From Escherichia coli (GTDB lineage: Bacteria > Pseudomonadota > Gammaproteobacteria > Enterobacterales > Enterobacteriaceae): a stretch of DNA of 64,000 bases. Below the pieces are notes generated by a model that saw nothing but the letters and a program-made list of their open reading frames with translations, did no database searches and was not told where the DNA came from. Numbering within the stretch: the first letter of the stretch is position 1; each line of letters begins with the position of its first letter. This document shows, one piece after another, positions 7,870-10,775 of the stretch. A program made the translations under genes and the position numbers. The stretch is from NCBI RefSeq assembly GCF_016026235.1, contig NZ_CP065613.1, one strand, 5' to 3'.

Positions 7870-8205
7870 TTAACTTTTGGTCATTTCACAAAGCGTATAA
7901 TTTAATAAGCGACCTAAACCGCTGACGGTTTGTGATAACGCTTCTTCTACTGCGCCCACCGAGCCATAAATCACCAATGCACCACTGAAGCGGTCGAGAA
8001 AACCGATATGCACATCAGCGGCTTTCAATGCTAAATCACCGGCGATCATCGCCGTTTCGCCAGGAGTTAGCGTCATAATGCCAATTGCGCCCGCATCCGG
8101 AACGCCGATTTTCTTCGCCAGTTCCTCGCCGGGATGCGCGATGAGATGCGCCAGCGTGACCTGTTTGCCGGGCACAAATTCCTGAATGATGCGTTCTTTA
8201 TCCAT
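7870..8205 (-). CDS. eutS: Microcompartment shell protein EutS; first gene of the operon
   Basis: ORF track 7870..8277; start at the internal Met ([10 protein letters not shown]) gives 111 aa. Confidence 0.8.
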
Positions 8206-8450
8206 GAGTCGCCGCCTGTGAAAAACTTTCGTGTATCGTGACAATTTTTCGTCAGAGTAAATAACAAAATTCGGCAAGCGCGTTTAAAAGGTGAGGTAGA
8301 TCACTAAGAATGGAGAGATATTTACTGTTATGAATAAACTTTCATATGCGACGCATGAATATAAATAAAATAATATCGAGATATTTTATATTGCTTTTTT
8401 TATTATTCGTAAACTCAGTAATAAGCTTTACTAATATATTGCAGCTGGAC
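8206..8450 (-). promoter_or_regulatory. AT-rich eut operon promoter/leader region upstream of eutS
   Basis: About 250 bp of AT-rich non-coding DNA immediately upstream of the first eut gene; no specific -10/-35 or EutR site assigned. Confidence 0.4.
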
Positions 8451-8495
8451 CGCTTACCCTGAATATTCAGGGTAAGCGTGAGAGTTAAAAAAGAA

Positions 8496-10775
8496 TTACA
8501 GCGGTTGGGTTTGCGCTTCAACCACGGCCAGCGCCACCATGTTGACGATACGACGCACCGATGCGATCGGCGTTAACACGTGAACCGGTTTCGCCACGCC
8601 CATCAGCACCGGACCGACAGTCACACCTTCTGAGCTGGAAACGCGCAGTAAGTTGTAACTAATGCGGGCAGCTTCCATGTTCGGCATCACCAGAATATTG
8701 GCAGAACCTTTCAAAGGGCTGTCCGGCATACGGTCGTTGCGAATCGCTTCCACCAGCGCTGCATCGCCGTGCATTTCACCATCAATCATCAGTTCTGGTG
8801 CACGTTCCCTGACCAGTTCCAGCGCCTGACGCATTTTGCTCGACGACGGGCAGTCAGAAGAACCAAAGTTGGAGTGCGACAACAAAGCAACGCGCGGCTC
8901 AATACCAAAACGACGGACAGTTTCTGCCGCCATCAAGGTGATCTCCGCCAGCTCTTCTGCGTCTGGTTCGTCATTGACGTAGGTATCGGCAATAAAGGTG
9001 TTACCACTCGGCAGCAGCAGCGCGTTCATTGCACCTGCGGTGTGAACGCCATCGCGATAACCAAAGACATTTTTCACCACGCTAAAATGTTCATGATAAT
9101 CACCCACCGTACCGCAGATCATTGCATCGGCTTCCCCACGCTGAACCATGATCGCGCCGATCACTGTCGGGTTACTGATCAGCGCCCGCTGCGCCTGTTC
9201 CTGAGTGACGCCGCGACGCTTCATGATCTGGAAGTATTCGGTCCAGTACTCTTTAAAGCGCGGATCGGATTCGTTATTGACGATCTCAAAATCAACGCCC
9301 GCTTTGATCTGCAAGCCCAGTTTCTGAATGCGCATTTCGATCACGTTCGGACGACCGATAAGGATCGGTTTCGCCAGTCCCAGCGTTACCAGTTCCTGAG
9401 TGGCATGCAGAACGCGCGCCTCTTCCCCTTCCGGCAGAACTACGCGCTTCGGCGCTTTGCGAGCCTGGGAGAAAATCGGCTTCATAAACAGGTTGGTTTT
9501 GTAAACGAACTCAGTCAGCTTGTCGATGTAGACGTCGAAATCAGCAATCGGACGCGTCGCCACGCCCGACTCCATCGCCGCTTTCGCGACCGCAGGAGCG
9601 ATCTTAACGATCAAGCGCGGATCAAACGGTTTTGGAATGATGTATTCCGGACCAAAGCTCAGATCCTGATCGCCATACGCTGAAGCCACCACTTCGCTCT
9701 GTTCCGCATGGGCCAGTTCTGCAATCGCGCGTACCGCCGCCAGTTTCATCTCTTCGTTGATGGCGGTTGCGCCAACGTCCAGCGCGCCACGGAAGATGAA
9801 CGGGAAGCAAAGGACGTTGTTGACCTGGTTTGGATAGTCAGAACGACCGGTGCAGATGATGGCATCCGGACGCACTTCTTTCGCCAGCGGCGGCAGAATT
9901 TCCGGTTCCGGGTTCGCCAGCGCCAGGATCATTGGTGCCCGAGCCATTTTCTTCACCATTTCCTGGGTCAGCACTTTCGGGCCGGAACAGCCGAGGAAAA
10001 TATCTGCGCCTTCAATCACATCATCGAGGGTACGTTTGCCGTCATCCACTACCGCATATGCGGCTTTGGTTTCCGCCATGTTTGGCTCACGGCCTTGATA
10101 GATAACGCCTTTTGAATCGCAAACCACGATGTTATGTTTTTGCAGACCCAGCGCTACCAGCAGGTTCATACAGGCGATTGCTGCAGCACCCGCGCCGGAA
10201 ACCACCATACGCACATCAGAGATGTTTTTCTCCACCACGCGCAAGCCGTTGAGGATGGCGGCAGTGCTGATAATTGCCGTGCCGTGCTGATCGTCGTGGA
10301 ATACCGGAATATTCATCCGCTCGCGCAGTTTCTGTTCAATATAGAAACATTCTGGCGCTTTAATGTCTTCGAGGTTGATGCCGCCGAAGGTCGGTTCGAG
10401 CGCAGCGACGACTTCAATAAATTTGTCCGGGTCGAGTTCATCAACTTCAATGTCAAATACATCAATTCCGGCGAATTTCTTAAACAGAACGCCCTTGCCT
10501 TCCATCACCGGTTTGCCCGCCAGCGCGCCAATGTTGCCTAACCCCAGCACCGCCGTACCGTTAGAGATCACCGCCACCAGGTTACCGCGCGCGGTATATT
10601 TGTAGGCTTTTAACGGGTCTTTTTCGATTTCAAGACAAGGTGCGGCAACGCCTGGTGAGTAGGCCAGCGCCAGATCGCGCTGCGTTGCCAGAGGCTTGGT
10701 TGGAGAAACCTGGATTTTCCCTGGAACTGGAAATTCATGGAAATCAAGTGCACTTTGTTTTAACTGGTCATCCAT
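8496..10775 (-). CDS. maeB: NADP-dependent malic enzyme (malic enzyme domain fused to a Pta-like domain)
   Basis: 759-aa ORF with N-terminal malic enzyme and C-terminal phosphotransacetylase-like halves. Confidence 0.92.

Follow-up and report, generated by a model that had tools for sequence, protein, structure and literature searches.

Position and sequence of the palindrome

What is a perfect palindrome doing between maeB and the ethanolamine-utilisation operon, and does it act as DNA or as RNA? The repeat lies in a stretch of 64,000 nucleotides of Escherichia coli DNA, referred to here as the window, in which the names maeB and eutS follow the RefSeq annotation of E. coli genomes that are identical or nearly so. 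The features of the region, all on the minus strand, are as follows.

8496–10775, minus: maeB coding sequence, 759 aa, C-terminus ...AQTQPL, stop codon TAA at 8496–8498
8479–8495, minus: U-rich leader UUCUUUUUUAACUCUCA, the 17 nt from stop codon to hairpin, defined by sequence and cross-genus homology
8451–8478, minus: maeB 3' hairpin, predicted 12-bp stem with 7 G-C pairs and a 4-nt loop, −20.4 kcal/mol
8436–8450, minus: tail at the place where a U-tract is expected, window allele GUCCAGCUGCAAUAU, with 2 U in the first 8 nt
8312–8435, minus: untranslated AT-rich spacer from the hairpin tail to the eutS block, Escherichia-specific, possibly a Rho loading zone
8206–8311, minus: eutS promoter and leader block, conserved across genera, the context of the hairpin and not part of it
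7870–8205, minus: eutS

The sequence CGCTTACCCTGAATATTCAGGGTAAGCG at 8451–8478 is a perfect 28-bp inverted repeat whose symmetry is not extended by the outer bases (C at 8450, T at 8479). It is the sole perfect even-length palindrome of at least 16 bp in the 64 kb, and by a simple estimate a perfect 28-mer is expected by chance about 64000 × 4^-14 = 2e-4 times. None of 100 dinucleotide-preserving shuffles of the window matched it within 3 mismatches. The palindrome lies 245 bp upstream of the eutS ATG, within a maeB-eutS intergenic region of 288 nt. The first-pass annotation had described this repeat as perfect and placed it 18 bp downstream of the maeB stop codon. We verified the exact sequence, which the shuffles never reproduce, and the distance is essentially right, with 17 nt intervening (8479–8495). 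Its remark that a U-tract is missing on both strands also holds, as the terminator scan of the window calls nothing; it overlooked the U-rich run UUCUUUUUU, which immediately precedes the stem in the maeB sense. Positions 8200–8520 show 100% identity to strain FDAARGOS_943, and the same region is matched in 5408 of the 5426 complete E. coli genomes.

A plus-strand open reading frame at 8346–8462 encodes 38 hydrophobic residues (MRRMNINKIISRYFILLFLLFVNSVISFTNILQLDRLP) and has its stop codon within the palindrome. It is probably not a gene: a product of 38–39 aa is found in the window- and K-12-type alleles only, most other E. coli have indels that shorten it to 15–24 aa, and locus L010 of the set of relatives described below lacks it.

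Predicted RNA structure

Transcribed in the maeB sense, the palindrome would fold into the stem-loop listed above, and its 121-nt context has a folding z-score of −3.0 relative to shuffles. No other terminator-like hairpin occurs on either strand of the 288 nt between maeB and eutS, and a second terminator was likewise not found on either strand of the AT-rich spacer. Its dimensions are those of intrinsic terminators (stem of 5–14 bp, loop of 3–8 nt, G-C pairs), as is its position, co-oriented with maeB and 17 nt past its stop codon. What the window allele lacks is the U-tract: the stem is followed by GUCCAGCU in the maeB sense and by UGAGAGUU on the plus strand. With no A-tract before the stem and few U after it, the hairpin has the composition described for protective 3' stem-loops (PMC6061677).

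An Rfam scan of 8100–8600 (E ≤ 10) returned chance-level matches only, e.g., a miRNA precursor that reached 21.5 bits where its gathering score is 86. Membership in a repeat family was considered and ruled out, the element occurring once in the window and once per E. coli genome and having no copies in viral contigs.

The slot downstream of maeB in related genomes

With the C-terminal 250 residues of MaeB as query, we retrieved 80 species-representative loci. Neither E. albertii nor E. fergusonii is among them, and a look-up of EutS-encoding contigs gave E. coli alleles only. Three of the 80 loci belong to other Escherichia, and all three carry a homologous hairpin at the same spacing from the stop codon. 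E. whittamii has the hairpin CGCTTACCCTGAGTAATTCGGGGTAAGCG followed by AUUUUUAUAU, with the U-tract kept; in Escherichia sp. MOD1-EC7003 the hairpin CGCTTACTCTGGATTATTCGGGGTAAGCG is followed by GUUUUAUUGC and the U-tract is likewise kept (GUUUUAUU); the divergent 'E. coli' SCPM-O-B-8794 has the identical palindrome, followed by GUUAAG. In two of the three Escherichia species the hairpin is more conserved than the 80 nt downstream of it (100% vs. 69% in L010, 90% vs. 57% in L011).

Outside Escherichia, all 21 loci in which eutS comes next after maeB (Citrobacter, Klebsiella, Yokenella, Pseudocitrobacter and Salmonella diarizonae) possess an unrelated G-C hairpin with a long U-tract. This terminator starts 22–23 nt past the maeB stop codon in 20 of the 21 loci and 53 nt past it in K. 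pneumoniae (L049). The Citrobacter hairpin is also called a terminator by the scan that we applied to the window. The leader TAATTyy..TTTAAyT ahead of the hairpin or terminator is homologous across genera. In many Enterobacter, Leclercia, Lelliottia and Pluralibacter genomes without eut genes at this locus, REP-like palindromes or repeats of the type CCCTCTCCC...GGGAGAGGG replace the simple terminator (repeats after maeB in L037–L039, L050, L053–L057, L063–L066, L070, L078, L080, L084 and L085).

Between hairpin and promoter block Escherichia alone has an extra 77–133 nt of AT-rich spacer; elsewhere the U-tract and the block are 8–15 nt apart. Past the hairpin the C/G ratio is 1.0 over the initial 120 nt, reaches 2.0 at 80–160 nt and is 1.32 for the 245-nt spacer as a whole. 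The promoter block itself contains a dyad, GTGATCTACCTCAC, at 8291–8304 on the minus strand, which is found in the block of Escherichia, Citrobacter, Klebsiella, Yokenella and Pseudocitrobacter and resembles the CRP consensus. Judged by sequence, the conserved protein-site-like element upstream of eut is this putative CRP site and not the 28-bp palindrome.

Tail alleles and terminator strength

The 8 nt past the stem vary within E. coli: most genomes read GUUUAG, and others GUUUGG, GUUUUC, A-GUUUAG (K-12) or GUCCAG, the last being the window allele. The GUCCAG tail together with the hairpin (a 65-nt stretch at ≥99% identity) occurs in about 106 genomes, ~2% of the total, some of them O157:H7. 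The alleles form a series, with UUUUU or UUUU in the sister species, UUU in most E. coli and UCC in the window.

The terminator scan calls the hairpins of E. whittamii (tail ATTTTTATAT) and of Escherichia sp. MOD1 (GTTTTATTGC) on the maeB strand, and it makes no call for the E. coli majority allele (GUUUAG) or for the window. We also computed an approximate score of terminator strength, of the d'Aubenton-Carafa type. Its values run from 26 to 67 for the canonical terminators of the 21 loci of other genera, through +15 for E. whittamii, +11 for the ETEC1738 allele, about +4 (+4.3) for the E. coli majority allele and −1 for Escherichia sp. MOD1, to −9 for K-12 and −10.5 for the window allele.

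Distribution within E. coli

With a 32-nt query taken around the centre of the palindrome, the hairpin was found in 5409 of the 5426 complete E. coli genomes. Each of them has it at a single locus, which is reported twice because a palindrome matches on both strands, and 4048 genomes are identical across the query. One copy of the maeB-eutS intergenic region comes from a record that is classed as plasmid. The stem hardly varies: a C-to-U change in strains S43 and EcPF16 gives a U·G pair, and in the K-12 lineage the closing pair has become C·A.

Several genomes carry rearrangements at this site. In E. coli LCP30S3_I3 (L091, 140–1520) an IS10-type element, annotated as ISVsa5, interrupts the 5' arm of the hairpin, flanked by a duplicated 9-bp target (CGCTTACCC), and separates maeB from the intact hairpin copy. 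In E. coli GDSC2239PM (L002, 2248–3000) an IS1 lies 14 nt past the hairpin, and the genes from eutS to the 5' part of eutE are gone. In strains WB61 (L092, 1050–2059) and MSB1_4I (L105) the DNA right past the hairpin and a short U-containing tail is swapped for a gene converging on maeB. In WB61 the annotation of the replacement gives a hypothetical protein and then a glycosyltransferase; the MSB1_4I record is too short for annotation there. MSB1_4I has its own hairpin allele, CGCTTACCCTGTTTATTCGGGGTAAGCG, with the tail GUUUUGCUG. Both where the eut side is deleted (L002) and where it is replaced (L092, L105), the hairpin remains with maeB.

RNA hairpin or DNA site

Across 9–10 distinct Escherichia alleles, 97.5–98% of stem cells are paired. 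Four internal pairs vary, and all of them are G·U in the maeB-sense RNA, would be C·A in the antisense RNA and break the DNA dyad; the only non-pairing substitutions, the C·A of the K-12 lineage and a U·U next to the loop in MSB1_4I, are both at helix ends. This wobble argument comprises about four events and corresponds to roughly p = 0.06, counting transitions only. Compensatory double substitutions are absent among the ten distinct Escherichia alleles, a comparison for which the shuffle control was uninformative. The loop varies in sequence and by 1 nt in length, which shifts the spacing of the half-sites and is harmless to a hairpin. The symmetry of the E. coli palindrome is perfect through its centre because the loop (AAUAUU) is self-complementary. 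Taken together, the G·U pattern, the broken dyads, the absence from other genera and the linkage to maeB favour a hairpin in the maeB-sense RNA over an operator.

The first-pass annotation had offered a protein-binding palindrome for the eut operon as one option, and this is the reading that the comparison serves worst. A DNA operator, bound by a dimeric regulator of eut or of some other local function, would account for the perfect E. coli dyad and for its position upstream of the eutS promoter. A genomic SELEX peak for the RpoS holoenzyme is also listed for the K-12 spacer (PMC5493296), though it points to promoter-like AT-rich DNA rather than to the palindrome. Orthologous operators should keep dyad and spacing, yet other Escherichia alleles break the dyad at 1–3 of 12 positions (3 in MOD1, 1 in E. 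whittamii and EcPF16, 2 in MSB1_4I) and change the length of the centre by 1 nt, all with RNA pairing kept. Nor does the palindrome travel with the eutS promoter across genera, since Citrobacter, Klebsiella, Yokenella and Pseudocitrobacter share the promoter block and lack it. Its distance to the conserved CRP-like site downstream is about 150 bp, and its 28 bp exceed the typical length of an operator. It is not known to match any E. coli operator. We therefore regard a regulator-binding site as very improbable.

Two further readings accept the RNA hairpin and differ in what it still does. It could be an efficient intrinsic terminator even in the window strain, the long stable stem, perhaps with the help of NusA/NusG, offsetting the missing U-tract so that neither Rho nor trimming is needed. 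The 12 bp and −20.4 kcal/mol place it at the strong end of E. coli terminators, no other terminator precedes eutS, and the majority allele scores marginally positive. However, release by E. coli RNA polymerase at an intrinsic terminator requires a U-rich, weak rU:dA hybrid, and the window tail, with its 2 U in 8 nt, is rejected both by the scan and by the approximate score; we hold full efficiency to be quite unlikely. At the other extreme, the hairpin could be a functionless relic of a former terminator that has had too little time to decay in E. coli. A decaying U-tract, the lack of compensatory covariation and the apparently tolerated IS10 within the stem of one strain agree with such a relic. 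Against it stand a stem nearly invariant across 5409 genomes, conservation above the flanks in other Escherichia species, internal changes that are all wobble-compatible, and the need for an insulator between maeB and eut, for which the hairpin is the only candidate structure. A mere relic is thus unlikely as well.

As for the other option of the first-pass annotation, a maeB terminator or RNA-stability hairpin, both RNA readings gain from the terminator slot, from the orthologues that score with a U-tract and from the maeB-sense G·U pairs. The label 'U-tract-independent' suits the element poorly, as the tract is eroded. The check proposed there, conservation across Enterobacteriaceae, came out divided: the hairpin is kept in Escherichia, and in other genera the palindrome is absent and a canonical terminator occupies its slot.

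Proposed role of the maeB hairpin

We consider it likely that the palindrome is the template of a terminal 3' hairpin of the maeB mRNA, descended from a Rho-independent terminator that separated maeB from eut. On the strength of the alleles compared above, the hairpin is most likely a decayed intrinsic terminator, and it probably serves as a 3'-end protector. Hairpin-driven release in the window strain is probably inefficient: we infer this because the RNA:DNA hybrid past the stem (GUCCAGCU) is not weak.

The ancestral, canonical terminator would have parted maeB, which is expressed constitutively, from an eut operon that runs in the same direction under tight regulation. In the window strain some polymerases may still stop at the hairpin. 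The remaining ones would enter the 245-nt untranslated AT-rich spacer, where Rho could terminate them before eutS, and 3'-to-5' exonucleases would then trim the RNA back to the base of the stem, which would shield the maeB message. There is precedent for this course of events, as U-poor stable stem-loops form the precise 3' ends of Rho-dependent E. coli transcripts and keep PNPase and RNase II from degrading them (Dar and Sorek, 2018, PMC6061677). That the two units are insulated is implied by protein data, in which MaeB is expressed and not induced by ethanolamine plus B12, while the Eut proteins are induced (PMC11334477).

Searches of the literature for the palindrome sequence and for maeB together with terminator or bicyclomycin found nothing relevant. 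The 'MAEB' motif of Weinberg 2007 is reportedly a Burkholderia repeat unrelated to the maeB gene. The maeB 3' hairpin is undescribed so far and ordinary in kind. In published 3'-end sets (supplements of Adams 2021, TERMITe 2025 and SMRT-Cappable-seq 2018) we found neither maeB and eutS nor talA, tktB and b2463; as the neighbours are absent too, this is no evidence against a maeB 3' end.

The hairpin marks the likely 3' boundary of the maeB transcription unit and would insulate the ethanolamine-utilisation operon from a housekeeping gene. In addition, it offers a clean natural case of a terminator that appears to have lost its U-tract and retained its hairpin. A more speculative idea, to which we give little credence, is that tail alleles (UCC, UUU, UUUG, UUUU and others) after a fixed hairpin tune leakage from maeB into eut, and with it basal Eut levels by lineage, the UCC of the window being a high-leak or Rho-dependent variant. 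Should the alleles indeed alter read-through, they could help to make basal eut expression differ from strain to strain, a trait with relevance to colonisation of the gut; past annotation, the importance of the hairpin is otherwise small.

Comparison with known systems

The palindrome has a core resembling the half-sites of LacI/GalR-family (Cra) operators, TGAAT/ATTCA, arranged in E. coli as a perfect dyad. The centre of the palindrome is 2 bp shorter than that of the Cra-type operator, and the Cra-like halves lack the central 2 bp. Unlike such an operator, the palindrome has a dyad that is not conserved in Escherichia and that other genera with the same eut promoter lack.

With REP/BIME elements the maeB palindrome shares an intergenic position past a gene end and a potential to stabilise the upstream mRNA. 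It differs from them in lacking the REP consensus and in being single-copy per genome, where REP/BIME elements have many dispersed copies. REP-like elements do follow maeB in several Enterobacter and Leclercia genomes.

The closest counterpart by position is the canonical maeB terminator of Citrobacter, Klebsiella, Yokenella and Salmonella (GGCGCGGG-loop-CCCGCGCC followed by UUUUUUAUUU). It occupies the same slot, 20–23 nt past the stop codon, on the same strand and behind a homologous leader, and would have the same role of parting maeB from eutS. The stems are unrelated in sequence, that of E. coli having 12 bp with 7 G-C pairs and the canonical ones 7–8 bp, all G-C. Unlike the canonical terminators, the window hairpin has no U-tract and is followed by the Escherichia-only spacer of 77–133 nt.

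By its features the hairpin comes near the U-poor stem-loops of Dar and Sorek (2018, PMC6061677). It differs from them in its probable descent from a U-tract terminator and in that no C-over-G enrichment is evident directly downstream. Like them, it is a stable structure with neither a U-rich tail nor an upstream A-tract, placed at a gene end before an untranslated stretch.
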